From a virus (taxonomy: Duplodnaviria; Heunggongvirae; Uroviricota; Caudoviricetes), in IMG/VR virus record IMGVR_UViG_2660238580_000001, positions 1 to 37,504 of that record: DNA of 37,504 nucleotides. The stretch is one strand, 5' to 3'. The notes under the pieces are model-generated. The model worked only from the letters and a program-made list of their open reading frames with translations, was not told the origin of the DNA and made no database searches. The first letter of the stretch is position 1; the number at the start of each line of letters is the position of its first letter. The translations under genes were made by a program, and so were the position numbers. Shown one piece after another: positions 1,369 to 37,504 of this stretch.

Positions 1369-1444
1369 GCCGATATAGCTCAGTTGGTAGAGCAGCGCAT
1401 TCGTAATGCGAAGGTCGTAGGTTCGACTCCTATTATCGGCACCA
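1369..1444 (+). tRNA. thrW: tRNA-Thr (anticodon CGU)
   Basis: 76-nt sequence GCCGATATAGCTCAGTTGGTAGAGCAGCGCATTCGTAATGCG...GGTTCGACTCCTATTATCGGCACCA with D-loop, anticodon loop containing CGT, T-loop GGTTCGA and 3' CCA; sits just downstream of proA. Confidence 0.93.
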
Positions 1445-1458
1445 TTTAAATCAATAAG

Positions 1459-2622
1459 TTACACATCATTTGTACCTTCCTTATTTTTTGACTGGGACAA
1501 ATTTGGGACCGATGGGTTCAGGATCGAGTCTATTTGCCGTGCGTGTTCGGTAAGGTGATTAGGTGCAAGGTGAGCATATCGACGAACCATTTCGATAGAC
1601 TCCCAGCCTCCCATTTCCTGTAACACTGACAACGGGACTCCGGCTTGAACCAGCCAACTTGCCCAGGTGTGTCTCAAGTCGTGAAATCTGAAATCATCAA
1701 TACCAGCCCGTCTCAGCGCCGCTTTCCAGGCTGTGTTTGCGTCATACCGCATCTTCCTTACTGTTGGCGCTTTCGTTCCGTCTGGTTTGGTACAGCTTTC
1801 CTTGTACACAAATACCCAACGGTGATGATTCCCGATTTGTTTTTTCAATACGCGACATGCAGTATCATTCAGCGCAACGCCAATTGCGCGGTTTGATTTA
1901 CTCTCTTCCGGGTTTATCCATGCCACCCGGCGCTGCATATCTATTTGTTGCCATTCAAGGTTGATGATGTTCGAGCGTCTTAAGCCTGTTGCCAGTGCAA
2001 ATTCAACAACAGACTTTAATGGCTCCGGACATTCATCAATCAGCCTTTGTGCTTCATGGGGCTCCAGCCAGCGGATCCGTTTATTCTTTGGTTGAGGCAC
2101 TTTAATAATTGGTGCCTTATCCAGCATTTTCCATTCACGCTCTGCGGCTCTTAGTAGGGCCTTTATAAATGAAAGATGCGTAGCCTTCGTTGCAACGGAC
2201 GCTGGTTTTGGCGTGTATTCTGGAACAGGTTTCCCTTTTTTTCTGCATGCTTCTGCCCTGAGTTTCCAGTTTTCCTCATGACGCCGGTTCGTCATTTTCT
2301 GCATTGCTGAATAAATTTTTGATTCAGTAATGTCTCTTAGTTGCATTCCTGCGAAATGTTGAAGCCAGAATCCGATCCGGCTTTTGTCATCGTCCAGTGA
2401 TTTTTTATGTGCTTTCTCTTCAAGCCACCTGACACACGCTTCCTCGAACGTTATATCAGGTATTTCACCAAGTTTGCTGACCCGCCATGCTTCAGCCTTT
2501 AGCTTGTCATGGAGTTCTGTCGCCTGCCTTTTGTCCTTTGTTCCAAGAGACTGTTTAAATCTTTTACCGTTCGGCAATGTGAAACTGGCGTACCATATTT
2601 CACCTCTGCGGAAGAGTGACAT
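1459..2622 (-). CDS. int: Tyrosine site-specific integrase, P22-like
   Basis: 387-aa ORF; C-terminal catalytic region with HDLRHTWAS ... RYAHL motifs typical of tyrosine recombinases; resembles my recollection of phage P22 Int, which uses thrW as attB. Confidence 0.94.
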
Positions 2623-2849
2623 TTTCTTTCCTCTGTTATGCCATCACCCGCGCTCACCTGGACAGTATGCAGCGGAGACTGAAGAGCCGCAATGCAGGCT
2701 TGTCGTGTTGTGAGGTAAGGAGATTTATTCTTAGTGGGATCTTTGCGTGTTGCCTGAAGACGCCCTGTGCGTATCCAGTTAATGGCAGTCGGTCTGGATA
2801 TCTTGAGAAAATGACAGGCCTCATCGAGTGTGAGGCTGTATGGCTCCAT
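2499..2849 (-). CDS. xis: Excisionase (P22 Xis-like, 116 aa)
   Basis: Internal Met start [33 protein letters not shown] of the 144-aa ORF gives 116 aa; ATG overlaps the stop of the upstream gene; 3' end overlaps int start in another frame. Confidence 0.75.
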
Positions 2850-3154
2850 TATTTCACCTCTTGCTGTGAGATTTTTGAGAAATGGATACCAGCTCGTTGC
2901 TGCCAGACGATCCAACCGAGAGTCATATTCCATGCCATGTATTCGTTATCGCCGTTTTTTGCTCTCCGACGATCTACTAAGTCACCAAAACGCTTTTCCA
3001 TGAATAATTCATAAGCTTCGCGTTCATCTGGTTCTACTTCCAGAGATAGGAGTGCGATTTCATAAGCACGGCGCTCAATATCGTCTCGCACGTCAAGGCT
3101 GCTGATACGCTCTTTAATTTCTTTAATCAGTTCTTTGTCGGTAAAAGTGGTCAT
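2849..3154 (-). CDS. Hypothetical early-left operon protein (101 aa, acidic)
   Basis: ORF with start/stop overlaps to its neighbours (translational coupling); protein-like composition; no family recognised. Confidence 0.5.
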   Translation of the reverse strand: MTTFTDKELIKEIKERISSLDVRDDIERRAYEIALLSLEVEPDEREAYELFMEKRFGDLVDRRRAKNGDNEYMAWNMTLGWIVWQQRAGIHFSKISQQEVK

Positions 3155-3516
3155 TATGCTCCAGCCTCCGGTGCTTTTGGCATTACTGCCCAGTGAGTGA
3201 TATTGACGTTTTCAAGGTCCCCGACCTGAAATGTCCACTGCCATTCTCCGGTTTCTTTTTGTCCCCAGGTGTACCAGAGAGAACGCCAGCCAATTAGCCA
3301 GCCTTCTCCGTTAGCATCGAATAACAAAACACTTTCATTTGCTGGTGGCAGTTCAGTTGACACTGGTATTACTTTGTTTTCCTGTGCTGCACATTTAGCT
3401 TCAAGCGCATCGAATTTACGCACTAGGTATTCAGCATCCGTTTCATTCACTTTCAGATCTCGCGGTACACATCTCCCACGAAGAAACCCTTCCATTTCGA
3501 AAACATTCATGCGCAT
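3154..3516 (-). CDS. Hypothetical phage protein with Trp-rich C-terminal region (possibly DUF551-like)
   Basis: 120-aa ORF, coupled to neighbours; C-terminal GWRSLWYTWGQKETGEWQW is reminiscent of small prophage proteins; family assignment uncertain. Confidence 0.5.
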   Translation of the reverse strand: MRMNVFEMEGFLRGRCVPRDLKVNETDAEYLVRKFDALEAKCAAQENKVIPVSTELPPANESVLLFDANGEGWLIGWRSLWYTWGQKETGEWQWTFQVGDLENVNITHWAVMPKAPEAGA

Positions 3517-4043
3517 TTGCGTAACTCCGATAATTCGTTAAAGCGTTCCATAAACATCCCGTAGGCATGGCCTGGAGCCAGTGGAATCACGTTGAACATC
3601 TCTGTTGCCGGGATACCTTCCAGCACAGGCCAGAAAGAGCCATCATCAAGCCCGAGATCGCGGCGTTCGGTTGCCAGCATAATGAGATCGGCATATTTCA
3701 CTGGCGTGCTCATAACAGGAGGTAACCCGTATTTCTCACGGATTACGGCGTCTATTTTTTCTTCCATCCGTTTATAGTCAGGAAGAAGTCGTTTCAGTGG
3801 TGCGGGGATGTCCTGGCAATATGCTTCTGTTGCATCATGCATTAAAGCTTCAAAAGCAAATTCCTGCGGCACCAGCTGGCTGCAAAGCACCGCATGTTGG
3901 GCGACGCTGTAGAAGTGAGAAAGATGACCGGCAAAGCGGCAGATATTTGAAAGGGAAACCGCGATATCGTTAATAACGATGTCGTCTTTATTTATCTTGT
4001 CATAATAAAAATGCTTCCCGGAAAAAGTTTTAATAAATGACAT
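3507..4043 (-). CDS. HD-domain phosphohydrolase
   Basis: Internal ATG at 4043..4041 preceded by GGAG; H...HD metal-binding signature (NICRFAGH, LMHDATEAY). Confidence 0.7.
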   Translation of the reverse strand: MSFIKTFSGKHFYYDKINKDDIVINDIAVSLSNICRFAGHLSHFYSVAQHAVLCSQLVPQEFAFEALMHDATEAYCQDIPAPLKRLLPDYKRMEEKIDAVIREKYGLPPVMSTPVKYADLIMLATERRDLGLDDGSFWPVLEGIPATEMFNVIPLAPGHAYGMFMERFNELSELRKCA

Positions 4044-4106: not shown

Positions 4107-4588
4107 CCGGCGATTATTGAGTCAATTACGTTTCAATAGATGCCCCCGCAGGGGCGGTTAGTTTCTCCACAAAACAGAGAAGAACACCTGCGGTGGCAGC
4201 CGCCCGGATGGATTGGGTTATGAGCCCGTCGTCCGGTGATGCTCTTCTCTGTTTTGTAAAAAGGACGGTACCAGCCGGAAGCAAGGGTACAAACTGGTAC
4301 CGCCAGGACTACACACAGCATAAAGTTGTGGTGCCGGGTGCCTCCCGGTGCCTGGCGAAGGTTGCACACCAGGCGGGTGGGTATCCACAGAAGGTCGACT
4401 GTCAGCCTCAACCTTAACCCGCGTGCGCTGAGCCGCATTCACCACAACGCTAAGGATTCTCTCTGGTTGAAAATACTTAGCTGTTATGTGCCTGCTTTTA
4501 GCCACATCAGGCGAGGTGGACCTGGTTATTCCCCAACAACAAGGATTCGGTTAATCTGGTTATCCCCAACAACGCAAAAGGAAAAGAA
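4107..4588. other. GC-rich, highly structured non-coding island (candidate structured RNA or regulatory region)
   Basis: No credible ORF; 15-bp perfect inverted repeat ACAAAACAGAGAAGA (4169-4183 / 4243-4257) around a 59-nt GC-rich loop; further hairpins (GGTACCAG/CTGGTACC at 4267-4274/4294-4301; GCCCC-CGCA-GGGGC at about 4142-4155). Confidence 0.35.
4522..4573 (+). repeat. Two direct repeats CTGGTTAT(T)CCCCAACAAC just upstream of the 4589 ORF
   Basis: Copies at 4522-4540 and 4556-4573, spaced 34 bp, ending 15 nt before the ATG; second copy contains TTATCCCCA (one mismatch to a DnaA box, TTATCCACA). Confidence 0.35.
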
Positions 4589-5023
4589 ATGTCCGGTAAT
4601 ATCTACACGCTGTACAAATCCCACTGTGAAAATGTTGGAAAGTATCGGGGCATTGAAATCAGTGGGGTAGTGTCATCAGTCGAAATAAGCAAAGTCGAAT
4701 CAAGGGCAACATTACTTACTCTTCTGGACCTTGTCTTACATGAGCACCGGAAGAAATTCGGCACTCCCTATAATCAGTTGAATGGGAAAAAGGCTCTGGT
4801 TCACCTTATTCTGATGAAGCATCACTGGATGCCAAAACAGATTAATGAGATGAAATTTGATGAACTTCTTCTTTCAATTCAGGATGAACTCACACTTGAT
4901 AAAATAAGCGTAACCGCCCAGAAATTTTTAGATTATCGAGACTGGAGATCACAAATTCATCACTTTGATGATTTTGACGAAAATGAATGGGATCCTAATT
5001 TGTCTGCACAATATCTAAAGTAA
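4589..5023 (+). CDS. Hypothetical protein (144 aa), AT-rich moron-like gene opposite in orientation to the early-left operon
   Basis: ATG at 4589 preceded by AAGGAAAAG; long ORF in AT-rich DNA; a plus-strand intrinsic terminator lies downstream at 5261-5284. Confidence 0.6.
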   Translation: MSGNIYTLYKSHCENVGKYRGIEISGVVSSVEISKVESRATLLTLLDLVLHEHRKKFGTPYNQLNGKKALVHLILMKHHWMPKQINEMKFDELLLSIQDELTLDKISVTAQKFLDYRDWRSQIHHFDDFDENEWDPNLSAQYLK

Positions 5024-5201
5024 CATCCTGTGATAAAACCGTGATTTCCTGATCCAGTTTTTTTAAGGAGTCTATTATTTCCTGTCGATAAGACAGCACT
5101 TCACGAAGCTGGTTTATAGCTGCCAGCTTCTTTGCCATCCACTCGTAAATTTCCTCATTTGTGTATCCGGGCGCGACGATTTTGGGTTCTGTTTTGTGCA
5201 T
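4995..5201 (-). CDS. Hypothetical small protein (68 aa), first gene downstream of PL-like promoter
   Basis: ATG at 5201..5199 preceded by GAGGAGG at optimal spacing; track ORF 4995..5216 trimmed to this start. Confidence 0.55.
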   Translation of the reverse strand: MHKTEPKIVAPGYTNEEIYEWMAKKLAAINQLREVLSYRQEIIDSLKKLDQEITVLSQDVTLDIVQTN

Positions 5202-5260
5202 TTCACACCTCCTCAAGTTATCAGTTACTTGTTGATGGGGACCAGATTGTTAAAGAGCTA

Positions 5261-5284
5261 AGCGTCCTGTAGGGCGCTTTTTTG
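5261..5284 (+). terminator. Intrinsic terminator (plus-strand specific)
   Basis: AGCGTCCT-gt-AGGGCGCT hairpin followed by TTTTTT; the reverse complement lacks a U-tract. Confidence 0.55.
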
Positions 5285-5359
5285 TTGCTAACGAATCATC
5301 CTGGACTTCATATGCCCCAGGCGGCTACTTCGTGGGCGTTCTGCCTGTTTGTTGTTTCT

Positions 5360-5435: not shown

Positions 5436-6110
5436 TTAGGCTTTGATTTTGTATCTTCTTGGTTTTCCTGAGAAAATCACAGTTCCAATTATAGAGCAAT
5501 TACCGTTGATCTTAATGTAAGGCTCAGGCCAGTTTGGGTTTAACGCTTTGAGATAACGCTGTGTCCCATCTTCTATCAACCTTTTGAAGGTGGTTTCACC
5601 TGTATCGTGCATCAATGCAATAACGTCGTCACCGTGGCAGGCAGGTACTTCAGGATCGACAAAAATCATGTCTCCCGGGCGGTACTCATCAATCATTGAA
5701 TCACCTATCACCCGCAAGATATAAGTCATTTCCCCACAGGGTACAGGGCAGGGATACGTTTCTGCTGTGCTCAAATCAACCTCAGAATATCCAACTTCTT
5801 TCCATGCTCCGGCCTGTACCCATGATATGACAGGGACTAATGTGATTTGTTTATTAGTGATTGAAACATCAGGTTTTTTTGTGATGTTCGTTGTCTGGTG
5901 TTCTTGATCGAGCCATCCGACAGGCAGGTCGAAACATTTTTCGATGTGTCGTGCCATGCTGTCACCGATATTTTTAGTAGCACCATCTCCCATAAACCTG
6001 CTGGTCTGGGTTGGCTCGCGATCAATCATAGTGGCAAAGGAAGAATTCCCGCCAACACCATCTCTCAGTTTTCTGGCGTTAGACCGCCGGATGTCATGGA
6101 TTGTTTTCAT
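5436..6110 (-). CDS. cI-like prophage repressor (HTH plus LexA/S24-type autocleavage domain)
   Basis: 224 aa; N-terminal HTH region and C-terminal S24 peptidase-like domain (GDSM serine motif, conserved Lys near C-terminus); ATG at 6110 has no SD and lies 15 bp from an operator, suggesting a leaderless mRNA as for lambda cI. Confidence 0.88.
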   Translation of the reverse strand: MKTIHDIRRSNARKLRDGVGGNSSFATMIDREPTQTSRFMGDGATKNIGDSMARHIEKCFDLPVGWLDQEHQTTNITKKPDVSITNKQITLVPVISWVQAGAWKEVGYSEVDLSTAETYPCPVPCGEMTYILRVIGDSMIDEYRPGDMIFVDPEVPACHGDDVIALMHDTGETTFKRLIEDGTQRYLKALNPNWPEPYIKINGNCSIIGTVIFSGKPRRYKIKA

Positions 6111-6200: not shown

Positions 6201-6401
6201 ATGAAAGCGTATTGGGACTCTTTAACCAAAGAACAGCAGGGCGAGTTGGCCGGAAAAGTTGGCTCAACACCTGGCTACTTACGGCTGGTTTTCAATGGCT
6301 ATAAAAAAGCCAGTTTTGTGCTGGCTAAAAAACTTGAGCAATGCACGTCAGGTGCAATTACGAAATCTGACTTAAGACCGGATATCTATCCGAAAGATTA
6401 G
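6201..6401 (+). CDS. cro: Cro-like HTH regulator (66 aa)
   Basis: ATG at 6201 preceded by GGAGG (6186-6190); small basic HTH protein MKAYWDSLTKEQQGELAGKVGSTPGYLRLVFNG; divergent from the repressor. Confidence 0.8.
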   Translation: MKAYWDSLTKEQQGELAGKVGSTPGYLRLVFNGYKKASFVLAKKLEQCTSGAITKSDLRPDIYPKD

Positions 6402-6432: not shown

Positions 6433-7002
6433 ATGAGGCTAATCGTGGGTAAGCATCACTGGAAAATAGAAAAACAGCCTGAGTGGTACGTGAAAGCTGT
6501 CAGAAAAACTATCGCGGCGTTGCCGGGTGGTTACGCTGAAGCGGCTGACTGGCTCGATGTAACAGAAAACGCTTTATTCAACCGCCTTCGTGCAGATGGC
6601 GATCAGATTTTCCCGCTGGGATGGGCAATGGTTTTACAGCGTGCTGGTGGCACTCACTTCATTGCTGATGCTGTGGCGCAGTCTGCAAATGGCGTCTTTG
6701 TGTCTCTTCCTGACGTCGAGGATGTGGACAACGCCGATATTAACCAGCGTCTGCTGGAAGTCATTGAACAGATCGGCAGTTATTCAAAACAGATTCGTTC
6801 AGCAATCGAAGACGGTGTAGTGGAACCGCATGAGAAGACAGCAATTAACGACGAGCTGTATCTCTCAATTTCGAAGCTGCAGGAGCATGCAGCACTTGTC
6901 TACAAAATTTTTTGCATTTCAGAAAGTAATGACGCCCGCGAGTGTGCAGCTCCGGGCGTCGTGGCGTCGATTGCTTCTGGTTGTGGAGAAACTAACGCAT
7001 GA
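6433..7002 (+). CDS. cII-like regulatory protein (YdaT / CP76-type)
   Basis: 189-aa ORF immediately after cro, the usual cII position; resembles YdaT-like prophage proteins from memory; family not confirmed. Confidence 0.5.
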
Positions 7003-7337
7003 ACAGTTTAACAACACACTACCGTCGCTCGCAACTGATTGCGCTTCCTGTACCGGGTGGAAAAGCGAAGGTGGAATATTGCTATGCAGTGAATGTACCA
7101 GGTGACAGGGAAATTGTAACCCACAGCTTTGCAGAGTGGGCTGTGGGTGATTTCAACCGGCAGAAGGAGACAGTCCTTTGCGACAAGTTAACCGCTGGTT
7201 CAAAGATCACTACGGAGTACCCGTCAGAGTCATTCGTTGGGAGCCGGAAACACAACGGGTTATCTACCTCCGCGAAGGCTATGAGCATGAGTGCTTCAGC
7301 CCGCTCGAACAGTTTCGTCGTAAATTCAGGGAAATAG
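6999..7337 (+). CDS. Hypothetical protein; reading frame ambiguous (possible frameshift or two overlapping small genes)
   Basis: ATG at 6999 with GGAGA RBS; protein-like to about 7195, then serine-rich; an alternative frame (TTG 7178 after AAGGAGA, to stop at 7357) reads [40 protein letters not shown] and looks more protein-like. Confidence 0.35.
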
Positions 7338-7346
7338 AGGTCGGTC

Positions 7347-8288
7347 ATGAGCACTAAATTAACCGGCTATGTATGGGATGGTTGCGCTGCGTCAGGCATG
7401 AAGTTATCCAGCGTGGCAATTATGGCCCGCCTGGCTGATTTCAGTAATGACGAAGGTGTGTGCTGGCCATCAATTGAAACCATTGCCCGCCAGATTGGCG
7501 CGGGGATGAGTACCGTCAGAACGGCTATCGCACGGCTGGAAGCAGAAGGCTGGTTAACGCGTAAGGCGCGTCGCCAGGGTAACCGCAATGCGTCGAATGT
7601 TTATCAGCTTAACGTTGCGAAGCTTCAGGCAGCGGCATTTTCTCAACTGTCAGATTCTGACCCGTCAAAATCTGACGCATCAAAATCTGACCCGTCAAAA
7701 TTTGATGCGTCGAAATCTGGCAAAAAAGCGGGTTTTCACCCGTCAGAATCTGGCGGGGATCCGTCAGTAAAATCAAAACATGATCCGTCAGATAAAAAAA
7801 CTTCTCGTCCGGACGCTTCGCAACCGGACATGAAGAAGGATGAACAGGATTTTTTAACTCGTCATCCTGATGCGGTTGTATTCAGCTCTAAAAAGCGCCA
7901 GTGGGGAACGCAGGATGATTTGACCTGCGCACAGTGGCTCTGGAAAAAAATCATCGCCCTGTACGAGCAGGCCGCCGAATGTGACGGCGAGGTGGTTCGT
8001 CCCAAAGAACCTAACTGGACAGCCTGGGCAAACGAAATTCGCCTGATGTGTGTGCAGGATGGTCGTACTCACAAACAAATCTGCGAGATGTACAGCCGCG
8101 TCAGCCGCGATCCGTTCTGGTGCCGTAACGTGCTCAGCCCGTCGAAGTTGCGGGAAAAATGGGATGAGCTTTCCCTGCGCTTATCGCCGTCCGTCAGCAC
8201 GCACACAGAAAAACGTGAAGACCCGTACTTCAAAGCCAGTTACGACAACGTGGACTACAGCCAGATCCCGGCAGGATTCAGGGGGTGA
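7347..8288 (+). CDS. Replication initiation protein (N-terminal HTH domain, iteron-encoded linker, C-terminal domain)
   Basis: 313 aa; N-terminal HTH-like region; central low-complexity linker SDSDPSKSDASKSDPSKFDASKSG encoded by DNA iterons, as in lambda O-type initiators. Confidence 0.78.
   Translation: MSTKLTGYVWDGCAASGMKLSSVAIMARLADFSNDEGVCWPSIETIARQIGAGMSTVRTAIARLEAEGWLTRKARRQGNRNASNVYQLNVAKLQAAAFSQLSDSDPSKSDASKSDPSKFDASKSGKKAGFHPSESGGDPSVKSKHDPSDKKTSRPDASQPDMKKDEQDFLTRHPDAVVFSSKKRQWGTQDDLTCAQWLWKKIIALYEQAAECDGEVVRPKEPNWTAWANEIRLMCVQDGRTHKQICEMYSRVSRDPFWCRNVLSPSKLREKWDELSLRLSPSVSTHTEKREDPYFKASYDNVDYSQIPAGFRG
7655..7800. repeat. Iteron array (candidate replication origin) inside the initiator gene
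   Basis: At least five copies of CCGTCA(A/G)AATCTG(A/G)-like repeats, followed by an A-rich stretch (GATAAAAAAA). Confidence 0.6.
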
Positions 8289-8290
8289 TC

Positions 8291-26770: not shown

Positions 26771-27039
26771 TGAAAGAGCTTGAGTTAAAGAAACCGATTA
26801 TCGCTCATGGTGAGACACTCTCTGTACTGGAGTTTGATGAACCCACCGGGAAGGATGTCCGCGAGCTGGGGTATCCCTACCAGATGAATCAGGATGAGTC
26901 CGTCAGACTTCTGGCGCATGTGGTGTCGAAATACATTGTGCGGCTGGCGAAAGTGCCGCAAAGCTCTGTCGACCAGATGTCTCCGGCAGACCTGAATGCA
27001 GCGGCGTGGCTTGTGGCTGGTTTTTTCCTCCAGGCCTGA
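26770..27039 (+). CDS. Tail assembly chaperone
   Basis: 89 aa between tube and tape measure genes; 3' end carries a slippery heptamer. Confidence 0.75.
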   Translation: MKELELKKPIIAHGETLSVLEFDEPTGKDVRELGYPYQMNQDESVRLLAHVVSKYIVRLAKVPQSSVDQMSPADLNAAAWLVAGFFLQA

Positions 27040-27188
27040 CGGCTGAATACCTCACTGATCGCTTCTTTGACTGCGCCAGCTACTGGCGCATTAATCCCTT
27101 CGAATTGCTGAATATGCCGATCAGTGAAATTCCCTTGCTGGTCAGTCAGGCAAACAGGATAGAGCAGGAGAAACGCACACATGGCTGA
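26770..27188 (+). CDS. Tail assembly chaperone, -1 frameshift extension product (G-T like)
   Basis: Slippery heptamer T_TTT_TTC at 27021-27027 in the zero frame; the -1 frame stays open to 27188, overlapping the tape measure start. Confidence 0.55.
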
Positions 27189-29013: not shown

Positions 29014-29039
29014 CCAGGATTCCCCTCACATGTATTGCT

Positions 29040-29104
29040 GGTTGTAAGTCATAAATAGAGTGATAGAATTAATGCACATTTAGAAAAATGTTAATAGGCG
29101 AAAA
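29040..29104 (+). promoter_or_regulatory. Candidate sigma70 promoter for the tail-region moron
   Basis: TTGTAA-N16-TAGAAT in the AT-rich gap between the tape measure stop and the moron start codon. Confidence 0.4.
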
Positions 29105-29635
29105 ATGAAAGGCTATATCACAGCAAGTGTAATTCTTGGAGCAGCGGCTATTTTTTCATCTCTCATAATCTCTGGCAACATCTCCTTTAAAGATGAACAT
29201 ATTATTCAGTTATCTGGAGGAGCCATAAAACTTGGTGATGTTTATAAAGAAAATAAATTGATAAGTGCAAAGATTATTTTTCCAGATAATCAGGGTGAAC
29301 AGATTCTTGTTGTCGACGGCAATCCTGAAAACTTTAAGGAGGATTTTCAGGAGAAATTAAATAAAGTAATAAAAACTTTAAATGCGTCAAAGAAAAAAGA
29401 TGAAGAGAAAGTTAGCCTGGATAATTTAAGTGTTATTGAAGAGTCTAAACTAGAGCTCGTTTCTGCGGTGCGTTACTCTGCTCAGTATGTTCCTATGTTT
29501 ACTCTGACGCTGGACAAAAAAGAAATTACCATGCCTAAAAATACGGTAATATTTCCATTTGCCAGCGATGAAACAGCTAAGTATTTAAATGAACAACAGC
29601 AAAAGTATAAAGATTCGTTGTTTCTGACTCGCTAA
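29105..29635 (+). CDS. Hypothetical exported or membrane-anchored protein (moron inside the tail gene cluster)
   Basis: 176 aa; N-terminal signal-peptide-like helix (ITASVILGAAAIFSSLIISG) with no lipobox Cys; very AT-rich; flanked by its own candidate promoter and a strong terminator. Confidence 0.65.
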   Translation: MKGYITASVILGAAAIFSSLIISGNISFKDEHIIQLSGGAIKLGDVYKENKLISAKIIFPDNQGEQILVVDGNPENFKEDFQEKLNKVIKTLNASKKKDEEKVSLDNLSVIEESKLELVSAVRYSAQYVPMFTLTLDKKEITMPKNTVIFPFASDETAKYLNEQQQKYKDSLFLTR

Positions 29636-29653
29636 TTAATAAAATTCATTACA

Positions 29654-29686
29654 AGGCCACCTTCTAATAGGTGGCTTTTTATTTTT
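29654..29686 (+). terminator. Intrinsic terminator after the moron
   Basis: AGGCCACC-ttctaata-GGTGGCTT hairpin followed by TTTTTATTTTT. Confidence 0.7.
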
Positions 29687-29696: not shown

Positions 29697-31025
29697 ATGA
29701 CGTGGAAAGACAGGCTTCAGGATGCGTCATTTCGAGGTGTGCCGTTTAAGGTTGAAGAAGAAAGTGCGGGAACCGGCCGTCGTGTGGAAACACACGAATA
29801 TCCGAACCGCGACAAACCCTATACCGAAGATCTGGGAAAAGTCACTTTCCGCCCGTCCATCACGGCTTATGTGGTGGGAGATGACTGCTTTGACCAGCGC
29901 GATCGCCTGATTGACGCGCTGAATAAACCCGGTCCCGGCACGCTTGTCCACCCGACATACGGTGAGCTGAAAGTCTGTGTTGACGGGGAAGTTCGGGTCA
30001 GCACATCGAAGAGTGAAGGGCGTATTGTCCGCTTTGACCTGAAGTTTGTCGAAGCGGGAGATCTCTCTTACCCCACATCAGGCGTGGCGACGGCGCAGAC
30101 GCTGATGTCATCCTGTTCTGCACTGGATGACTGCATCAGTGACAGCTTCAGCGGTTTCAGTATCGATGGCGTGGCGGATTTTGTGCAGAACGACGTTATC
30201 GGTAATGCCAGCACAATGCTTGGGTATGTTTCTGATGCGATGAAAGTGGTGGATTCTGCCGTATCGGATGCCGCCAGGCTGTTGCAGGGGGATATCTCGG
30301 TACTTCTGCCGCCACCATCGTCAGGCAAAAATTTCGTTGAGCAGGTGCAGAAAATGTGGCGTACCGGGAAACGCCTTTATGGTAACGCCAGCGACCTGGT
30401 CACCATGATCAAAACGCTTTCCGGTGTCAGCCTCGGCAGCGATCTGCAACCGCGCGGCGTCTGGAAAACGGACAGTAAAACCACCGCCACGGCGACGCAG
30501 CAGCGTAATGTGGTTGCCAGCACTCTTCGTACGACCGCAATCAGCGAAGCGGCGTATGCCGTCACCCGATTGCCTGCGCCAACAACTTCCGCGGTGATGC
30601 AGAATGCCACAGTGGGGCAGTCAACAACACCCGCGCAGAGCACCGGCTGGCCTTCTGTCACGCATCCGGCACTGAACAATGCACCGGCGGTGAAAAACAC
30701 GGTTGACCTGCCAACGTGGGAAGAACTGACCGACATTCGCGACACACTGAATACGGCAATTGATAAGGAGTTGTCCCGTACAACCAGTGATGCGCTGTTT
30801 CTGGCGCTGCGCCGGGTGAAAGCAGATCTGAATGCGGATATCAACACGCGCCTTGAACAGTCTGCACGGATCATTCAGCGCACGCCGGATGAGGTTTTAC
30901 CCGCGCTGGTGCTGGCGGCGACCTGGTTTGATAACGCGGCGCGTGACGCGGACATTATCCGGCGTAATGCCATTACGCATCCCGGCTTTGTGCCGGTGAT
31001 CCCTCTGAAGGTGCCAGTGCAATGA
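29697..31025 (+). CDS. DNA circularization protein (Mu N-like)
   Basis: ATG at 29697 after GGAG (track ORF starts at a GTG at 29691); position after tape measure as in Mu-like tails. Confidence 0.8.
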   Translation: MTWKDRLQDASFRGVPFKVEEESAGTGRRVETHEYPNRDKPYTEDLGKVTFRPSITAYVVGDDCFDQRDRLIDALNKPGPGTLVHPTYGELKVCVDGEVRVSTSKSEGRIVRFDLKFVEAGDLSYPTSGVATAQTLMSSCSALDDCISDSFSGFSIDGVADFVQNDVIGNASTMLGYVSDAMKVVDSAVSDAARLLQGDISVLLPPPSSGKNFVEQVQKMWRTGKRLYGNASDLVTMIKTLSGVSLGSDLQPRGVWKTDSKTTATATQQRNVVASTLRTTAISEAAYAVTRLPAPTTSAVMQNATVGQSTTPAQSTGWPSVTHPALNNAPAVKNTVDLPTWEELTDIRDTLNTAIDKELSRTTSDALFLALRRVKADLNADINTRLEQSARIIQRTPDEVLPALVLAATWFDNAARDADIIRRNAITHPGFVPVIPLKVPVQ

Positions 31026-32101
31026 ACGACAATGTCACGCTACGGGTAAATGGCCGGGAGTGGAATGGCTGGACATCGGTGCGCATCGGTGCCGGTATTG
31101 AACGGCTGGCGCGGGATTTCAGTGTGGAGATCACTTGCCAGTGGCCGGGAGATGAGGGTATCACCACGCTTCAGCCGCGCATTAAAAACGGTTCAAAAGT
31201 GGAAGTGCTGATTGGTGATGAGCTGGTGATCTCCGGCTGGGTGGAGGCGACTCCCGTTCGTTACGATGCCCGTTCGGTCAGCACCGGTATTGCCGGACGT
31301 AGTCTTACGGCTGACCTGATTGACTGTGCAGCCGAACCGACACAGTTTAACGGACGCTCGCTGGTGCAGATTGCGCAGGCGCTTGCTGCGCCTTTCGGCA
31401 TTGAGGTGGTGAACAGCGGTGCGCCGTCGGGTGTTATTCCTGATGTTCAGCCTGATCACGGTGAAACGGTGATTGAGGTAATCAACAAAATACTCGGTCA
31501 GCAGCAGGCGCTGGCTTACGACGACCCGCACGGCAGGCTAGTGATTGGCGGTATTGGCTCAACGCGGGCACATACCGCGCTGGTACTTGGGGAAAACATC
31601 CTTTCCTGTGATACGGAGAAGAGTATCCGGGAGCGGTTTTCTGTTTACCAGGTGGCGGGGCAGCGTGCCGGAAACGACGATGATTTCGGTGAGGCCACCA
31701 CCACCGCGCTGCGGGCCCGCACAGAGGACGCATTTATTGCCCGTTACCGTCCGATGTATATCAGGCAGACAGGGCAGGCCACGGGGGCAGGCTGTATTGC
31801 GCGTGCTGACTTTGAAGCCCGACAACGGGCGGCGCGGACGGATGAAACCACCTATGTGGTGCAGGGCTGGCGACAGGGTAACGGTACGCTGTGGCAGCCC
31901 AACCAGCGGGTGATTGTCTTCGATCCGGTCTGTGGTTTCGACAATACCGAACTGCTTGTCTCGGAAGTCACGTTTACTCAGGACCAGAACGGCACCCTGA
32001 CGGAAATCCGTGTCGGCCCGCCTGATGCTTATCTGCCTGAACCCGAAGCCCCCGGCGCGCGGAAAAAGAAAAAAGCCAGAGTACAGGAGGACCCGTTCTG
32101 A
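31022..32101 (+). CDS. Baseplate hub protein (Mu gp44/P-like)
   Basis: 359 aa; conserved position in the Mu-like baseplate cluster. Confidence 0.8.
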   Translation: MNDNVTLRVNGREWNGWTSVRIGAGIERLARDFSVEITCQWPGDEGITTLQPRIKNGSKVEVLIGDELVISGWVEATPVRYDARSVSTGIAGRSLTADLIDCAAEPTQFNGRSLVQIAQALAAPFGIEVVNSGAPSGVIPDVQPDHGETVIEVINKILGQQQALAYDDPHGRLVIGGIGSTRAHTALVLGENILSCDTEKSIRERFSVYQVAGQRAGNDDDFGEATTTALRARTEDAFIARYRPMYIRQTGQATGAGCIARADFEARQRAARTDETTYVVQGWRQGNGTLWQPNQRVIVFDPVCGFDNTELLVSEVTFTQDQNGTLTEIRVGPPDAYLPEPEAPGARKKKKARVQEDPF

Positions 32102-32649
32102 TGAGGACGATTGAAGCCATGCAGCGACAACTTCTCGGCCTGATTGGGCGGGCAGTGGTGAAAAGCATCAGTGCCGCCACGAAATGTCAGACCGTGGATG
32201 TGTCCCTGATTGCCGGTGAACCCAAAGCCGGGGTTGAACATCTTGAACCCTACGGTTTTACCGCAAGGGCAAACAGCGGTGCGGAAGCGGTGGTGTTGTT
32301 TCCGGATGGCGACCGTTCTCATGCGGTGGTTGTTACGGTGTCGGACCGGCGCTACCGCCTGAAAGGGCTGCAGACGGGTGAGGTGGCTGTCTATGACGAT
32401 CAGGGGCAGTCTGTGACGCTGACCCGGGAGGGGATCGTGGTGGACGGTGCAGGGAAAACGATCACGTTTCGCAATGCACCTGAAGCACGTTTTGAAATGG
32501 ATCTGGAAGTGACCGGACAGGTGAAAGACCTGTGCGACTCCGGCGGCACCACCATGTCAGCGATGCGGCTTGCCTATAACGGGCATCGTCACAGAGAGAA
32601 CGGTCAGGGCAGTAACACCGACAAACCTGATAAAGCGATGGAGGCATGA
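32101..32649 (+). CDS. Baseplate assembly / spike protein (Mu gp45-like)
   Basis: 182 aa; conserved position in the baseplate cluster. Confidence 0.72.
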   Translation: MRTIEAMQRQLLGLIGRAVVKSISAATKCQTVDVSLIAGEPKAGVEHLEPYGFTARANSGAEAVVLFPDGDRSHAVVVTVSDRRYRLKGLQTGEVAVYDDQGQSVTLTREGIVVDGAGKTITFRNAPEARFEMDLEVTGQVKDLCDSGGTTMSAMRLAYNGHRHRENGQGSNTDKPDKAMEA

Positions 32650-33074
32650 TGGAACTGTGGCTGACGGTGAACGGTAAACGCACCTGCGCCAGCGCACCGC
32701 TGGATCCGCTGACCCGCGCCGTGGTGATTTCCCTGTTTACCTGGCGACGGGCGGAGTCTGATGACAATGCCGACGTCCCGATGGGATGGTGGGGGGATAC
32801 CTGGCCTGCGGTACAGAATGACCGTTACGGCTCCCGACTGTGGCTGCTTCAGCGCAGCAAACTGACCAATCAACTGGTGCAGACGGTAAAGGGGTATATC
32901 CGCGAATGCCTGCAATGGATGACTGATGACGGCGTGGTGTCCCGTATTGATCTGGATATCCGCCGCACCGGGATTAATGAGCTGGGTAACAGTATCACCC
33001 TCTGGCGTCGTGACGGACCGGTAATGATTTCTTTTGATGATCTGTGGAGTGCGATAACGCATGGCGGACAGTGA
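32646..33074 (+). CDS. Baseplate protein (Mu gp46-like)
   Basis: 142 aa; conserved position. Confidence 0.72.
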   Translation: MMELWLTVNGKRTCASAPLDPLTRAVVISLFTWRRAESDDNADVPMGWWGDTWPAVQNDRYGSRLWLLQRSKLTNQLVQTVKGYIRECLQWMTDDGVVSRIDLDIRRTGINELGNSITLWRRDGPVMISFDDLWSAITHGGQ

Positions 33075-34119
33075 ATTTCAGCGCCCGACGCTGGCAGAAA
33101 ATATCAGTATGCTCCGTAACGATTTATTCGCCAGGCTGGACGTCAGCGACACGCTCCGGCGCATGGATGAAGACGTGCGGGCAAAGGTGTATGCGGCGGC
33201 ACTGCATACGGTTTACGGTTACATCGATTATCTGGCAATGAACATGCTGCCTGACCTGTGCGATGAGTCCTGGCTGGCGAGACATGCTGCGATGAAACGG
33301 TGTCCGCGCAAGGGGGCCATGGCTGCCAGCGGGTATATGCGCTGGGAAGGTGTCAGCGATGGCCTGAAGGTGACCGCCGGGAGTGTTATTCAGCGCGATG
33401 ACCTGGTTCAGTACACGGCAACTGCCGATGCAACCAGCTCCGGTGGTGTCCTGCGCGTGCCGATCGCCTGCTCAAGTGCAGGCGCGGGCGGTAACGCTGA
33501 CGACGGTACGTCATTAATCCTGGTCACGCCGGTGAATGGTCTGCCGTCTTCCGGCGTGGCAGATACCCTGACAGGTGGATTTGATACTGAAGAGCTGGAA
33601 ACGTGGCGCGCCCGCGTCATTGAGCGGTATTACTGGACGCCTCAGAGCGGGGCTGACGGGGACTATGTTGTCTGGGCTAAAGAAGTTCCCGGCATTACCC
33701 GCGCATGGACATACCGACACTGGATGGGAACGGGGACTGTCGGTGTGATGATTGCCAGCAGCGACCTGATTAACCCCATTCCGGAAGAATCAACGGAAAC
33801 GGCGGCAAGACAACACATTGAGCCACTGGCTCCGGTAGCAGGCTCTGATTTGTATGTATTCAGGCCGGTGGCACATACGGTGGATTTTCATATCCGCGTG
33901 ACGCCGGACACACCAGAAATACGGGCTGCCATTACCGCGGAGTTGCGTTCGTTCCTGCTGCGTGATGGTTATCCGCAGGGAGAACTGAAGGTATCGCGTA
34001 TCAGTGAGGCGATTTCCGGTGCGAACGGGGAATACAGCCATCAGTTGCTTGCACCGGCGGACAATATCTCCATTGCAAAAAATGAACTGGCGGTTCTGGG
34101 GACGATTTCATGGACGTGA
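33061..34119 (+). CDS. Baseplate J-like protein (Mu gp47-like)
   Basis: 352 aa; conserved position and size. Confidence 0.82.
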
Positions 34120-34694
34120 CAAACGATGATTACATCCGTCTGTTGTCGGCACTGCTGCCGCCCGGTCCGGCGTGGTCAGCCAGCGATCCGGCGATTGCCG
34201 GTGCAGCACCGTCATTAACCCGCGTTCATCAGCGTGCGGATGCCCTGATGCGGGAGCTGGATCCGCGCACCACCACCGAACTGATAAACCGCTGGGAGCG
34301 TCTGTGCGGCCTGCCAGATGAATGTATTCCTACAGGGACACAGACCCTTCGCCAGCGTCAGCAACGGCTGGATGCGAAGGTTAACCTGTCGGGTGGCATC
34401 AACGAGGATTTTTATCTTGCACAGCTTGCTGCCCTGGGCAGACCAGATGCTACCATCACGCGATACGACAAAAGCACGTTCACCTGCTCATCGGCCTGTA
34501 CTGACGCTGTGAACGCGCCTGAATGGCGGTATTACTGGCAGGTCAACATGCCAGCCGCCACCAACACCACCTGGATGACATGTGGTGATCCCTGTGATTC
34601 CGCACTGCGCTTCTGGGGGGACACCGTTGTCGAGTGTGTTCTTAACAAACTCTGCCCGTCGCATACCTATGTGATTTTTAAATATCCGGAGTAA
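34110..34694 (+). CDS. Tail protein (Mu gp48-like)
   Basis: 194 aa; conserved position immediately before the tail fibre gene. Confidence 0.72.
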
Positions 34695-34697: not shown

Positions 34698-35354
34698 ATG
34701 CATCGTATAGACACGAAAACCGCGCAGAAGGATAAGTTCGGCGCGGGTAAGAACGGTTTTACCCGTGGTAACCCCCAGACCGGCACGCCTGCCACCGATC
34801 TGGATGATGACTACTTTGACATGTTGCAGGAAGAGCTTTGTGGCGTGGTGGAGGCATCCGGTGCCAGCCTGGAGAAGGGGCGGCATGACCAGCTGCTTAC
34901 CGCGCTTCGTGCGCTGCTGTTAAGCCGCAAGAATCCGTTTGGCGATATCAAATCGGATGGCACGGTGAAAACGGCTCTCGAAAACCTTGGTTTGGGAGAA
35001 GGTTCGGCATTACCCGTTGGCGTGCCTGTTCCGTGGCCTTCCGCTATTGGTCGCTTCGGGTTTTTTGTTTGCGGTGGTGGCTCTTTTTCTTTTGCATCAT
35101 GTTTTGTTCTTGAGTGGGGCTCTCTGGGCGCTCCATTGCTTGCTTTGGGTGTTGTGTTTCTTTTTGGGTTTGCTTTTGGGCGTGGATTTGTTCGTGTTTT
35201 TGTTTTATTAGCGTATCCAGCGGATGGCGTGGTTTTTGGTTATCTTGGCTTTGCTGGTTTTGTTGGGTCCGTTGTTAATTTTCTGTCTGGAGTCGGTCCT
35301 GTTGTCTTTGGCGCTTCATTTTTAGCGTTAGGCTGTTCATTTGGTTTTGTTTAG
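34698..35354 (+). CDS. Tail fibre protein: conserved N-terminal region intact; C-terminal part inside the invertible segment is aberrant (likely non-functional in this orientation)
   Basis: Typical tail-fibre N-terminus (MHRIDTKTAQKDKFGAGKNGF ... PVGVPVPWPSA); after the crossover site at about 35000 the reading frame continues as Gly/Phe/Val/Leu-rich low-complexity sequence. Confidence 0.55.
   Translation: MHRIDTKTAQKDKFGAGKNGFTRGNPQTGTPATDLDDDYFDMLQEELCGVVEASGASLEKGRHDQLLTALRALLLSRKNPFGDIKSDGTVKTALENLGLGEGSALPVGVPVPWPSAIGRFGFFVCGGGSFSFASCFVLEWGSLGAPLLALGVVFLFGFAFGRGFVRVFVLLAYPADGVVFGYLGFAGFVGSVVNFLSGVGPVVFGASFLALGCSFGFV
34975..35000. repeat. gix/hix-like recombination site (left), within the tail fibre gene
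   Basis: CTCTCGAAAACC-TT-GGTTTGGGAGAA, a 26-bp imperfect palindrome resembling Hin/Gin crossover sites; its reverse complement matches the first 14 nt of the right site. Confidence 0.6.
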
Positions 35355-36872
35355 TGGTCTATGAGTTACATAGTTTTTACTTATACCACTGGTGGAAGAA
35401 ATGGTGCTGAATCAGTGAGTTCACCTGATGCCTCCTCTTTGCTTGATGATGCTGTTGAAGTTGATGTGGCATTTTCTTTTGTGTTTTGGGGTTTATCGTG
35501 GATTGGGCCGTTTTGTATCGCTGGTTTATCTGGTTTTCGTGCGTGGTTCTTACTGTTTATAACTATGATGGTGAAACACGGGAATATATTTTCACATCAA
35601 CTGAATATCTTGCTGTGGGTGTCGGCATTCCGGCATGCTCCTGTTTAGATGCTTGTTACTGCTGTTATTGTTGTTATGCAATCTGCCGTTCTGCAGATTT
35701 TAACTTTTTGGTTTGTTTGCCTGGCCGCCGTGGTGCTGGTGTATATTTCCGTTGCGCCGGATATTGAATGGCCTTCGCCTCTGGGGGTTCTTGCCCTGTG
35801 ACTTCCGGCGCTGTGGTGGTGTTTGTTGCCTTCGCTGCGTGGGTTTGTTCGAGCTGGGTGTTCGGTCGTGTGGTTTCTGCTTGCGTCGGCTTCGGCGCGG
35901 CCTGCGCTTTGCGTTGGTTCCTGCTTGTTGCTGCCATTGCTTTCTTCATTCTTGTTTGACTGTGTTTTTCTGCCGGGTGTACTGTGGCGCAGTGCTGTGC
36001 CTCCGTATTTGTCGCTGTTTTGTCTTCCTTTGATTTGTTGACTGGCGTTAACGGGGCGATAGTGGTTGTATTTTCAGGGTATTCACCCGGGGCTGTGATT
36101 TCTTTTGATTCTCCTGTTTCAGTGCTATATACCGTTTCACCACGGTGGTCTGGCACATATACCCATGATTTTATTTCTGCAGTTCGTCAGCTTTCATACG
36201 CCGCTTTGTCTGTTTCCGGGGCCATTGTTTACTGTTCATATAATCGTTGGCCTGATTAATCAATTGCTGCTTCTCCAATTCGGCTGTATTCCTTTGTTTC
36301 TCCTTTGTTGTTGTTGGCATTTCTGTTTCTTGCGTGGGTGGCTTTTCTTTCGTTATTTGGTTTTTTGTTTTCGGTTGTGCTGCGGTCACGTTATTCTCCA
36401 CTTGCTGGTTCCGTGGTCTGGTTTCTTTTGTTCATGAGTCAGCTTGAGTGTAATCCTCTTTCATCTCCAGCGGATAGAAAGAGTTTGTAGTCGCGGAATC
36501 TCTTTCATTGTTTTTTCAGTCCTTCTCGCTAACTTTTTTTGCTGATGCTAAAATTGTTTCGTCGGGTCTAGGCTTTTTTGTTCTGTATGTGATTTTAGTC
36601 GGTTCGGGCCTTTTTGTAGGTATTCCATGATTATGAGAAATTACTGCATGTTGTTTGTTGTTTTGTGAGGTCCGACCGCTCTGCCCTCTGTTTGGGTCTT
36701 CCCTGGGGCGATTGGTTTCTCCATGTTGTTCAGTGCCTTTATTTGTCGGATAAGCCTTTGCCAGTTCCGGGTATTCTTGTGCTTTTTGATCTGCAGTGTT
36801 TGATTTCGGCCGGGTTGTTGTCGGCGTGTCAGGTATCTGATTCGCCCCTGTCCCTACATTCCTTTTAGCCGC
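35001..36872. other. Invertible (G-segment-like) DNA segment with extreme strand-asymmetric base composition
   Basis: Bounded by inverted gix-like sites next to a serine invertase. Hand counts in 60-nt samples (A/C/G/T): 2/11/20/27, 5/6/17/32, 5/6/19/30, 1/18/20/21, 2/9/16/33. Overlapping stop-free ORFs occur on both strands. Confidence 0.6.
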
Positions 36873-36898
36873 TTCTCCCAAACCAACCTTTTAGAAAA
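36873..36898. repeat. gix/hix-like recombination site (right), upstream of the invertase gene
   Basis: TTCTCCCAAACC-AA-CCTTTTAGAAAA; first 14 nt identical to the reverse complement of the left site. Confidence 0.6.
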
Positions 36899-36952
36899 TG
36901 CAGTTATTCGGCTCAGATGGCATGATCCCGGATTTTTACAGGGTTATTTCTC

Positions 36953-37504
36953 ATGCTCATCGGCTATGTACGCGTGTCAACAAATGACCAGAACACTGCA
37001 TTGCAACGAAACGCGCTGGAGTGCGCAGGATGTGAACTGATATTCGAGGATAAGATCAGCGGCAGAACGTCTGACAGGCCGGGCTTGAAGAAAGTACTCA
37101 GGACTCTGTCTGAAGGCGATACGCTGGTGGTCTGGAAACTGGATCGACTCGGTCGCAGCATGCGGCATCTTGTCGTTTTGGTGGAGGAGCTTCGGGAAAA
37201 GGGTATTAACTTTCGCAGCCTGACCGACAGCATAGATACGTCTTCACCAATGGGACGCTTTTTCTTCCATGTCATGGGCGCACTTGCAGAAATGGAAAGG
37301 GAGCTGATAGTCGAACGTACCAGGGCGGGATTGGCTGCGGCTCGTGAAGAAGGGCGAATAGGTGGGCGTCGATCAAAGCTAACTGATGAACAGTGGGCGC
37401 AGGCAGGCAGGTTGATTGCAGCAGGTGAATCACGACAGCGTGTGGCATTAATTTACGATGTTGGGATATCGACGCTATATAAAAAATTTCCGGCAACCAG
37501 GTAA
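36953..37504 (+). CDS. Serine DNA invertase (Pin/Gin/Hin/Cin family)
   Basis: 183 aa; close match to E. coli Pin as I recall it (MLIGYVRVSTNDQNT ... VVWKLDRLGRSMRHLV ... GRIGGRR ... YDVGISTLYK), including the catalytic serine motif and C-terminal HTH. Confidence 0.93.
   Translation: MLIGYVRVSTNDQNTALQRNALECAGCELIFEDKISGRTSDRPGLKKVLRTLSEGDTLVVWKLDRLGRSMRHLVVLVEELREKGINFRSLTDSIDTSSPMGRFFFHVMGALAEMERELIVERTRAGLAAAREEGRIGGRRSKLTDEQWAQAGRLIAAGESRQRVALIYDVGISTLYKKFPATR

Follow-up and report, generated by a model that had tools for sequence, protein, structure and literature searches.

The DNA deposited as IMG/VR virus record IMGVR_UViG_2660238580_000001 raises the question of what kind of element occupies the 3′ side of the tRNA gene thrW in its host, and whether the mosaic of phage modules found there was newly joined or inherited. 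The window, by which we mean the whole stretch of 37,504 nucleotides (nt) analysed here, runs from the start codon (ATG) of proA to the last codon, a stop, of a serine invertase gene. Exact-protein look-ups assigned it to scaffold KQ087687.1 of the Escherichia coli assembly GCA_001030405.1, and all of its DNA 3′ of thrW was found to be phage. The window very probably represents the left 36 kb of a temperate phage genome, a lambdoid myovirus of the SfV/e14/ST64B kind, whose integrated unit from thrW to attR measured about 42.1 kb. The prophage is apparently an intact and ordinary member of the SfV/e14 group carrying the usual variable cargo, and is not new. One stretch of it, 35045-36828, is not real DNA but a consensus into which both orientations of an invertible tail-fibre segment have collapsed. 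The gene content, the homologies, the att and crossover sites and this assembly artefact were observed directly. Every protein of the window was compared by tblastn with SfV (NC_003444), P22, Mu, HK97, e14 and ST64B; Pfam families had been precomputed for every called gene of the source scaffold, and the closest complete genome, that of strain APEC20/16 (L001), served as the reference.

The left end of the element, with the host flank, carries the following features.

1-1254, plus strand: proA, host flank (open reading frame (ORF) of 417 amino acids (aa); annotated as proA in the 98-99% identical APEC20/16 locus)
1369-1444, plus strand: thrW, tRNA-Thr(CGT), the integration target (ARAGORN; Rfam tRNA, 71.8 bits)
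1399-1446, plus strand: attL core, 48 nt, perfectly repeated at attR
1459-2622, minus strand: tyrosine integrase of the P22/SfV type (PF00589; 98% identical to SfV Int, 90% to P22 Int over 387 aa)
2499-2933, minus strand: excisionase-like HTH_17 protein (96% identical to SfV Xis, 86% to P22 Xis; weak PF12728 match)

The original prediction, made from the letters of this DNA, had named the absence of attR as a refutation of its claim of a prophage at thrW. The site exists: positions 18755-18802 of locus L002, on the source scaffold, repeat the 3′ end of thrW perfectly over 48 nt, 5,948 nt past the end of the window. It was the sole further copy of the core in the 7.85 kb downstream of the window, even with up to 3 mismatches allowed, and the DNA 3′ of it carried host genes (a LysR fragment and XdhC). 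The core matched SfV attP at 48 of 48 positions and the P22 attP region at 47 of 48. An integrase of this type would insert the phage at the 3′ end of thrW and thereby duplicate the 48-nt core. A scan of the whole window with Rfam found thrW only.

When the window was aligned with SfV by blastn, 66% of positions 1397-37504 were covered in blocks of 88-98% identity. The gene order (int, xis, early left, cI/cro, replication, nin, Q, lysis, cos, head, tail) was lambdoid and collinear with that of SfV, and the att core, Int and cI/cro immunity were likewise shared with SfV, whose relatives are SfI, SfII and SfIV. Sequence similarity was high in the nin-like region (88-99%), in terminase and cos (97-99%) and in the contractile tail and baseplate (98-100%). 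The alignment was interrupted at the following places.

4144-4155: junction at which SfV orf31 and orf32 (YfdQ/YfdP) are precisely deleted
4520-5289: variable early-left cargo, an opposite-strand ECs1072-family gene and a 68-aa ORF in place of SfV orf33
7036-8212: replication genes
11968-14810: Q and cargo 1
16123-16741: cargo 2
19391-22986: head genes
29008-29686: cargo 3
35002 onward: invertible segment with the invertase, the break falling exactly on the inner edge of the left crossover site

The prophage thus differs from SfV by the loss of orf31/32 and the insertion of three cargo genes or gene pairs, by another HK97-family head type (26-28% identity), and by its replication initiator and Q. 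The fibre C-terminus is fixed in SfV, whereas here it is invertible and accompanied by a Pin-type invertase; and SfV has gtrA, gtrB and gtrV, whereas this prophage carries other low-GC cargo before attR. Base composition followed the same joints. The GC content fell to 35-42% at about 12.0-14.7 kb, to 42% at 16.0-17.0 kb and to 40% at 29.0-30.0 kb, against 52-60% elsewhere, and these three islands coincided with the SfV-absent stretches 11968-14810, 16123-16741 and 29008-29686.

Comparison with e14 and ST64B placed the element further. Remnants in e14 were 92-100% identical in protein to the prophage, except for the integrase and attachment site. YmfK, YmfT, YmfL, YmfM, the terminase remnant, YmfR and YmfQ reached 97-100%, and the large terminase 99% over 378 aa; the fibre N-terminus (98%), the left crossover site (27 of 27 positions) and PinE (88%) were also shared. 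In contrast, e14 lies in icd, has another integrase and has lost most of its morphogenesis genes, whereas this prophage lies at thrW, has a P22-type integrase and is full length; judged by sequence, e14 resembles such a phage from which parts have been deleted. The overall architecture was shared with ST64B as well. Between the terminase and the sheath gene, into which the similarity reaches, the nucleotide identity was about 84%, and in protein the portal was 99%, the protease 98%, the capsid 96% and the large terminase 92% identical; however, identity in the tail and baseplate proteins was only 23-85%, ST64B has other integrase, immunity and lysis genes, and its invertase is a remnant.

These data fit what is in print. 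SfI, SfII and SfV were induced as myoviruses with isometric heads and contractile tails (PMC3636060); they integrate at thrW beside proA, are packaged from cos and are mosaics related to e14 (PMC3636060, PMC3851460). Two HK97-family types of head genes have been distinguished, that of SfI, SfII, SfIV and e14 and that of SfV (PMC3636060, PMC3851460). The combination of P22-type integrase, lambdoid control, HK97 head and Mu tail is therefore the published architecture of the group, inherited by this element and not newly joined in it. The modules named by the original prediction were all recovered: the P22-type integrase, with the identity given above; the HK97-type head, whose portal, protease and capsid were 26-36% identical to those of HK97 and belong to HK97 Pfam families; the Mu-type contractile tail, with tail and baseplate proteins 30-43% identical to those of Mu; the Gin-type fibre switch, with an invertase 79% identical to Gin beside an invertible segment; and the resemblance to the SfV-like group, by the alignment and the att core. 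Its three cargo sites (Q-lysis, lysis-terminase and tape measure-circularization) agreed with the GC troughs and the SfV-absent stretches. The sharp boundaries of its mosaic are real, but the joints are not peculiar to this element. The prediction was to fall if head and tail belonged to a single well-known phage type without mosaic joints, and in part this is so, the mosaic being that of the SfV group. Prophages similar to the left 25 kb, with at least 80% of the query covered, were present in 131 of 5,426 complete E. coli genomes, and those similar to the right 12.5 kb, at the same coverage, in 171 of them.

The 6 kb between the invertase gene and attR (L002:12808-18802) had a GC content of 32-54%, mostly below 45%. 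Its genes specify a protein of 206 aa, one of the DUF2188 family with a weak PADLOC match (PDC-S16, E 4e-4), an SOS-response-associated peptidase (SRAP), a membrane-like protein of 327 aa and one further protein of 310 aa, the last named a HEPN-domain protein by PGAP in the 99.9% identical region of APEC20/16. This cargo fills the slot where SfV and P22 have gtr genes. With SfV GtrA, GtrB and GtrV, tblastn gave no match in the window and the 7.85 kb downstream at E ≤ 1.

Some side observations concern the same region of APEC20/16. An IS3 element is inserted in it, and attR is followed in tandem by a second element that bears an integrase. Within the cargo before attR, PGAP calls a tRNA-Pro (L001:6797-6878), which may be a degenerate tRNA-like remnant; ARAGORN made no tRNA call in the corresponding part of the source scaffold, which is 99.9% identical, and an 87-nt repeat of 70% identity lies 2 kb from it.

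Several points weigh against taking the window and these 6 kb as one ordinary SfV-group phage. The low-GC 6 kb are unlike any region of SfV and could be a later accretion. Since gtr genes are lacking, the prophage is not a serotype-converting phage as the named Shigella members are, though it stays within the wider SfV-like group. Inducibility and virion morphology of the prophage are inferences from sequence. The content of the fibre segment, unreadable in the window, was taken from the relative APEC20/16. Finally, when ten cargo proteins were searched with PADLOC (2023), none of those inside the window matched.

Two alternatives were weighed. A defective prophage, grounded like e14 and kept for its cargo and invertase without forming particles, is unlikely, although such a fate has befallen its kin: e14 of K-12 is a deleted derivative of nearly the same phage (cI 100%, YmfL 99%, TerL 99%, PinE 88%), and in APEC20/16 the lineage decays, with frameshifts in gp46 and Rz besides the IS3 insertion. 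Here, however, all the structural, lysis, packaging and control genes examined were full length; no internal stop was found in the gene set compared, and gene lengths were near those of the SfV and ST64B annotations. Both att copies were perfect, and the sole unreadable stretch is an assembly artefact and not a lesion. The record vB_EcoM-689R6 (ON470584) was set aside; it is a predicted prophage with icd flanks and thus no evidence for virions.

It is a little less likely still that the unit from thrW to attR is a composite, in which an SfV-like prophage is joined to an unrelated 6-kb island (SRAP, DUF2188, HEPN-like) that is not packaged. The low GC content of the 6 kb and their lack of an SfV counterpart would suit such an island, and thrW does collect tandem elements, as the second integrase-bearing element after the same att repeat in APEC20/16 attests. 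Against this, the only further att copy downstream is located after the 6 kb, the 6 kb contain no integrase, and they lie exactly in the slot of the SfV/P22 gtr cargo, between the fibre genes and attP. The whole of 42.1 kb is moreover close in size to SfII (41.5 kb). We keep to a single temperate phage genome extending from thrW to attR.

Its right part within the window contains a fibre switch, made up as follows.

34698-34988, plus strand: constant N-terminal part of the tail-fibre gene, 97 residues (97% identical to SfV orf21, 98% to e14 StfP)
34976-35001: left crossover site, pix/gix-like, 26 bp, central TT at 34987-34988, inside the fibre gene
34989-36884: invertible fibre segment, 1,896 nt, with two alternative fibre C-termini and two fibre-assembly genes
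35045-36828: chimeric consensus of both segment orientations, about 1.8 kb (mirror test against APEC20/16)
36872-36897: right crossover site, 26 bp, central AA at 36885-36886
36953-37504, plus strand: serine DNA invertase of the Pin/Gin family (PF00239 and PF02796; 88% identical to e14 PinE, 79% to Mu Gin)

The two crossover sites form an inverted repeat about the axis p+q=71873. When 34975-35001 was used as the query, it was identical to the e14 site inside stfP at 27 of 27 positions and to Mu gix at 18 of 27. From the segment rebuilt with APEC20/16, one orientation would yield a 266-aa fibre with a 200-aa fibre-assembly protein (Tfa) and the other a 213-aa fibre with a 146-aa Tfa. The arrangement is that of the Mu G segment with Gin (and also of the P1 C segment with Cin and of Salmonella Hin), in which an invertase stands beside a segment of opposed fibre C-termini and assembly genes; as in Mu, one crossover site lies inside the fibre gene and the site consensus is shared. 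The segment is 1.9 kb here against 3 kb in Mu, and the variable parts of the fibre are unrelated to Mu S/S′. The Pin/Gin-type invertase would flip the segment and so exchange the fibre C-terminus together with its assembly chaperone, which would presumably change the host range.

The deposited sequence of this segment was abnormal. The AT skew was about -0.5 to -0.6 per kb over 35001-37000 (in 100-nt windows -0.17 to -0.90, mostly below -0.4), and the T/G-rich stretch 35045-36828 contained 201 A, where 505 were expected, and 771 T. On either side of it the window agreed with APEC20/16 almost completely, with 99.5% identity over 9429-35044 and 100% over 36829-37504. Within it, the changes with respect to APEC20/16 were A to C, G or T, C to G or T, and G to T, with 81-114 of each, and T was nearly untouched. 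Such a spectrum is expected when every position takes whichever of two bases, its own and an unrelated one, comes later in the alphabet. We applied the rule max(S[p], comp(S[q])), in which every base is paired with its mirror complement, and 92.5% of the positions obeyed it at the axis 71873 as compared with about 56% at other axes. This mirror axis is exactly the axis of the 26-bp crossover inverted repeat. Over the 1,896 nt, 689 bases differed from the APEC20/16 orientation; all 689 were the mirror complement, with zero third bases. The later-base rule was followed over 1,210 nt with 4 exceptions. A model of the alphabetical maximum throughout, which fits 92.5% only, was given up in favour of a three-state segmentation (APEC20/16 orientation, inverted orientation, maximum), which left 7 mismatches in 1,896 nt.

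An artefact of our own preprocessing, such as the handling of IUPAC codes, was rejected. The scrambled 218-aa ORF of this stretch is found with the identical translation in GenBank as KLX37029.1 (WP_048228909.1), so the fault sits in the deposit itself. That protein stood alone in its cluster when some 15 billion sequences were compared; a second artefact protein is WP_187440447.1, of 95 aa. A diversity-generating retroelement (DGR) acting on adenines, or a deaminase hypermutating DNA to diversify the fibre, would make the A-poor stretch real and is practically ruled out: the stretch does lie in the receptor-binding region, where diversity generators act, and its adenines are strongly depleted with changes of A to C, G and T about equal, but changes from C to G or T and from G to T were as frequent and T almost never changed, identity to the mirror complement at all 689 bases has a chance of about (1/3)^689 among unrelated substitutions, the later-base blocks held with so few exceptions, the Pfam lists contained no reverse-transcriptase gene (template repeats were not searched for), and the resulting protein is a singleton, so that the mirror test together with the substitution spectrum refutes it. 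The stretch 35045-36828 is a collapsed consensus of two orientations, and the ORFs called there are meaningless. The simplest account of the blend would be that both orientations were present in the sequenced culture; the invertase would then have been active there.

Control of the phage was read from the early region, immunity and replication genes and the nin-like region.

2849-4043, minus strand: early-left homologues of SfV orf28, orf29 and orf30 (97-100% identical)
4589-5023, plus strand: ECs1072-family protein, variable early-left cargo (PGAP name in APEC20/16; absent from SfV)
4995-5201, minus strand: 68-aa ORF, variable early-left cargo (absent from SfV)
5436-6110, minus strand: cI-type repressor with LexA-like S24 peptidase (PF00717; 100% identical to SfV cI and e14 YmfK)
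6201-6401, plus strand: cro-type repressor (100% identical to SfV Cro, 98% to e14 YmfT)
6445-7002, plus strand: CII-like regulator, CP76/YmfL (PF06892; 99% identical to e14 YmfL)
6999-7337, plus strand: YmfM-like protein, 112 aa (97% identical to e14 YmfM)
7347-8288, plus strand: replication initiator, HTH_36, O-like (PF13730)
8285-11955, plus strand: nin-like region with PerC, Dam methylase, LexA-DNA-binding protein, RusA, KilA-N and DUF968/HNH (Pfam; 88-99% identical to SfV orf40-45)

The homologues of SfV orf28, orf29 and orf30 are named in APEC20/16 by PGAP as YfdT-like, phage protein and YfdR-like HD 5′-deoxynucleotidase, respectively; the YfdR-like protein gave a YfbR-like/HD Pfam match of 24.0 bits, below the curated cut-off of 25.9. 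Neither the ECs1072-family protein nor the 68-aa ORF had a Pfam or PADLOC match. The early-left operon had been thought unusually short. It is short, but this is typical of the group, and L003, L009 and L010, further E. coli prophages, have the same short form. A search of the window and the 7.85 kb downstream for P22 and HK97 N, cIII and Kil, for P22 Erf, Arf, Abc1, Abc2 and Ral and for HK97 Erf found no homologue at E ≤ 0.01, which agrees with the original prediction that N, cIII, kil and recombination genes are missing. The lambda-type regulation that it had proposed holds in part: cI, cro, a cII-like gene and Q are present, but because N is lacking the regulation is only partly lambda-like. 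The cI repressor of SfV/e14 immunity, with its LexA-type self-cleavage domain, would hold lysogeny, and cro would oppose it. The YmfM-like protein may supply a kil-like activity from the early-right operon. In K-12, e14 YmfM is annotated as a cell-division inhibitor.

The replication initiator was 29% identical to the SfV replication protein and 99% to an e14 remnant over 79 aa; relative to SfV it is a module swap. Inside its gene, at 7656-7719, 4.3 copies of a 15-nt repeat, TCTGACCCGTCAAAA, were found, which encode a Ser/Asp/Pro/Lys-rich linker. By analogy with lambda O, these repeats are likely origin iterons.

The late genes follow on the plus strand.

11973-12320, plus strand: late antiterminator Q, 115 aa (PF06530)
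14838-16153, plus strand: lysis cassette of holin, endolysin, Rz-like i-spanin and overlapping LysC-type o-spanin (PF05106, DUF2570, LysC)
16751-19451, plus strand: packaging genes, HNH endonuclease, cos, small terminase (P27 family) and large terminase (Pfam; 97-99% identical to SfV)
19463-22984, plus strand: head genes, YmfR-like 60-aa protein, portal, S78 prohead protease, HK97-family major capsid protein and a 66-aa protein
22987-24755, plus strand: head-tail joining genes, connector, head-closure protein, neck protein and tail terminator (PF05135, PF05521, PF23840)
24764-29013, plus strand: contractile tail genes, DUF2635 (Mu gp38-like), sheath, tube, assembly chaperone and tape measure (Pfam)
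29697-34694, plus strand: Mu-like baseplate genes, DNA-circulation protein and homologues of gpP, gp45, gp46, gp47 and gp48 (Pfam)

Q, which would switch the late genes on, had no match to the Q proteins of SfV, P22 and HK97 and is of a different type from SfV Q. The lysis genes were 77-96% identical to SfV S, R and Rz, and the endolysin is named GH24 in APEC20/16; holin, endolysin and spanins are predicted to effect lysis. The ends of the SfV genome (37074/1) mapped contiguously at 17159/17160 with 93-97% identity, and the cos site is therefore placed by homology at 17159/17160, between the HNH gene and the small terminase gene. Terminase, assisted by the HNH protein, would cut there and pack the DNA into the HK97-family capsid. 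The head genes (PF04860, PF04586 and PF05065) include no separate scaffold gene, and portal, protease and capsid, 96-99% identical to those of ST64B, reached at most 28% with SfV. The head-tail joining proteins were 61-98% identical to those of SfV, and the tail and baseplate proteins 98-100%, the sheath being 36% identical to Mu L. The capsid would thus be joined to a Mu-like contractile tail.

The remaining question is what the cargo does. Low-GC cargo occupies variable positions in the element: the early-left region, the interval from Q to the holin, that from lysis to terminase, that from tape measure to DNA circulation, and that from invertase to attR. The cargo of the three middle positions, with the hairpins that flank the first, is listed here.

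12311-12346: hairpin GACGGCCATATTGGCCGTC, at the 24-nt gap that separates the converging stop codons of Q and the gene for the 392-aa protein
12345-13523, minus strand: cargo 1, 392-aa protein with a C-terminal membrane domain (no Pfam family)
13513-14547, minus strand: cargo 1, NA37/YejK-like nucleoid-associated protein (PF04245, E=1.5e-68)
14664-14685, plus strand: terminator-like hairpin, GC-rich with a T-run, about 150 nt upstream of the holin gene (consensus scan of the sequence)
16219-16704, plus strand: cargo 2, 161-aa basic protein of pI 9.1, between spanins and HNH (absent from SfV; 42% GC)
29105-29635, plus strand: cargo 3, 176-aa protein (absent from SfV and from the e14-like prophage L017; 40% GC)

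Cargo 1, absent from SfV and with a GC content of 35-37%, was the most informative. The NA37 match spans 324 of 325 profile positions. The NA37 gene comes first and overlaps the 392-aa gene by 11 nt (13513-13523). The 392-aa protein has hydrophobic stretches at residues 288-318 and 350-384, within its last ~110 residues, and its residues 1-265 are mildly acidic (pI 5.7, 35 acidic against 29 basic residues). The called start of its gene lies three codons inside a 395-aa ORF. The exact 392-aa protein was indexed in 794 blocks of the assembly collection and stood between Q and the holin in 8 of 8 contexts shown, one of which is a P22-like podovirus prophage (L010). Its homologues extend across Enterobacterales into Betaproteobacteria.

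This architecture resembles PANGU. In that system, upon infection, a YejK-like protein departs from the degraded nucleoid and switches on its partner effector; type II consists of a nucleoid protein (Pag2A) and a C-terminally membrane-anchored effector (Pag2B), and an E. coli operon of this type has been validated against T4 (bioRxiv 10.64898/2026.04.06.716658). The criteria given for type II are a bicistronic arrangement with genes less than 40 bp apart and an acidic DNA-mimic (DMK) N-terminus of the effector that binds the nucleoid-associated protein (NAP) (bioRxiv 10.64898/2026.04.06.716658). A YejK-domain system has also been validated by DefensePredictor (PMC13092281). The pair in the window likewise is a two-gene operon of E. 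coli in which a YejK/NA37 gene is followed by that of a partner with a C-terminal membrane domain; here, however, the phage carries it as cargo, placed between Q and the holin, and the likeness is one of architecture. PADLOC-DB 2023, a database that predates the PANGU preprint, gave no match for cargo 1. By analogy, cargo 1 is a candidate type II PANGU-like defence system, likely acting by abortive infection, and is not counted as a member. In SfV, the Q-S slot holds orf47 and a methyltransferase.

The two hairpins bear on how this operon is placed in the late transcript. That at 14664-14685 is a candidate for tR′, and together with the one at 12311-12346 it suggests that PR′/tR′ lie downstream of the cargo and not beside Q. 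The idea that late transcripts from PR′ silence the NA37 operon as antisense had been considered, and it was dropped on account of these hairpins.

For the other cargo genes the database searches were largely silent. On the cargo as a whole, Pfam gave the NA37 match and the below-cut-off YfbR-like/HD match only. The 161-aa protein of cargo 2 had no significant Pfam or PADLOC match. Other E. coli prophages carry DUF2513 and DUF2560 genes in the same slot between lysis and HNH, and relatives of the 161-aa protein are labelled DUF4760 in some sources. The 176-aa protein of cargo 3 has an N-terminal hydrophobic segment (residues 3-28) and no Pfam or PADLOC match, and belongs to a protein cluster of 524 members without family assignment; in the e14-like prophage L017 no gene stands between the tape measure and the DNA-circulation protein. 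We would suggest only tentatively, and with doubt prevailing, that the 176-aa, 161-aa and ECs1072-family genes serve superinfection exclusion or defence, that the NA37 pair is a type II PANGU system, and that SfV-like prophages carry defence hotspots.

As to what these findings mean, the element matters little biologically: it adds one to the SfV/e14-type prophages, a group whose architecture was published over a decade ago (PMC3636060, PMC3851460). The consequences for the databases are more immediate: KQ087687.1 (GCA_001030405.1) carries 1.8 kb of non-existent sequence, which is the source of singleton GenBank and RefSeq proteins. Composition-based scans will keep flagging 35045-36828, which is unfit for gene or composition mining, and the mirror test offers a simple means to spot collapsed invertible segments. 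For e14, a nearly full-length counterpart helps to read its remnants (ymfK-ymfR, stfP/E and pinE). With cargo 1, a prophage that is common in E. coli carries a candidate PANGU type II system. If the tentative reading of the other cargo were true, SfV-like prophages would carry several defence hotspots, analogous to those of P2 and P4 and not new in kind.

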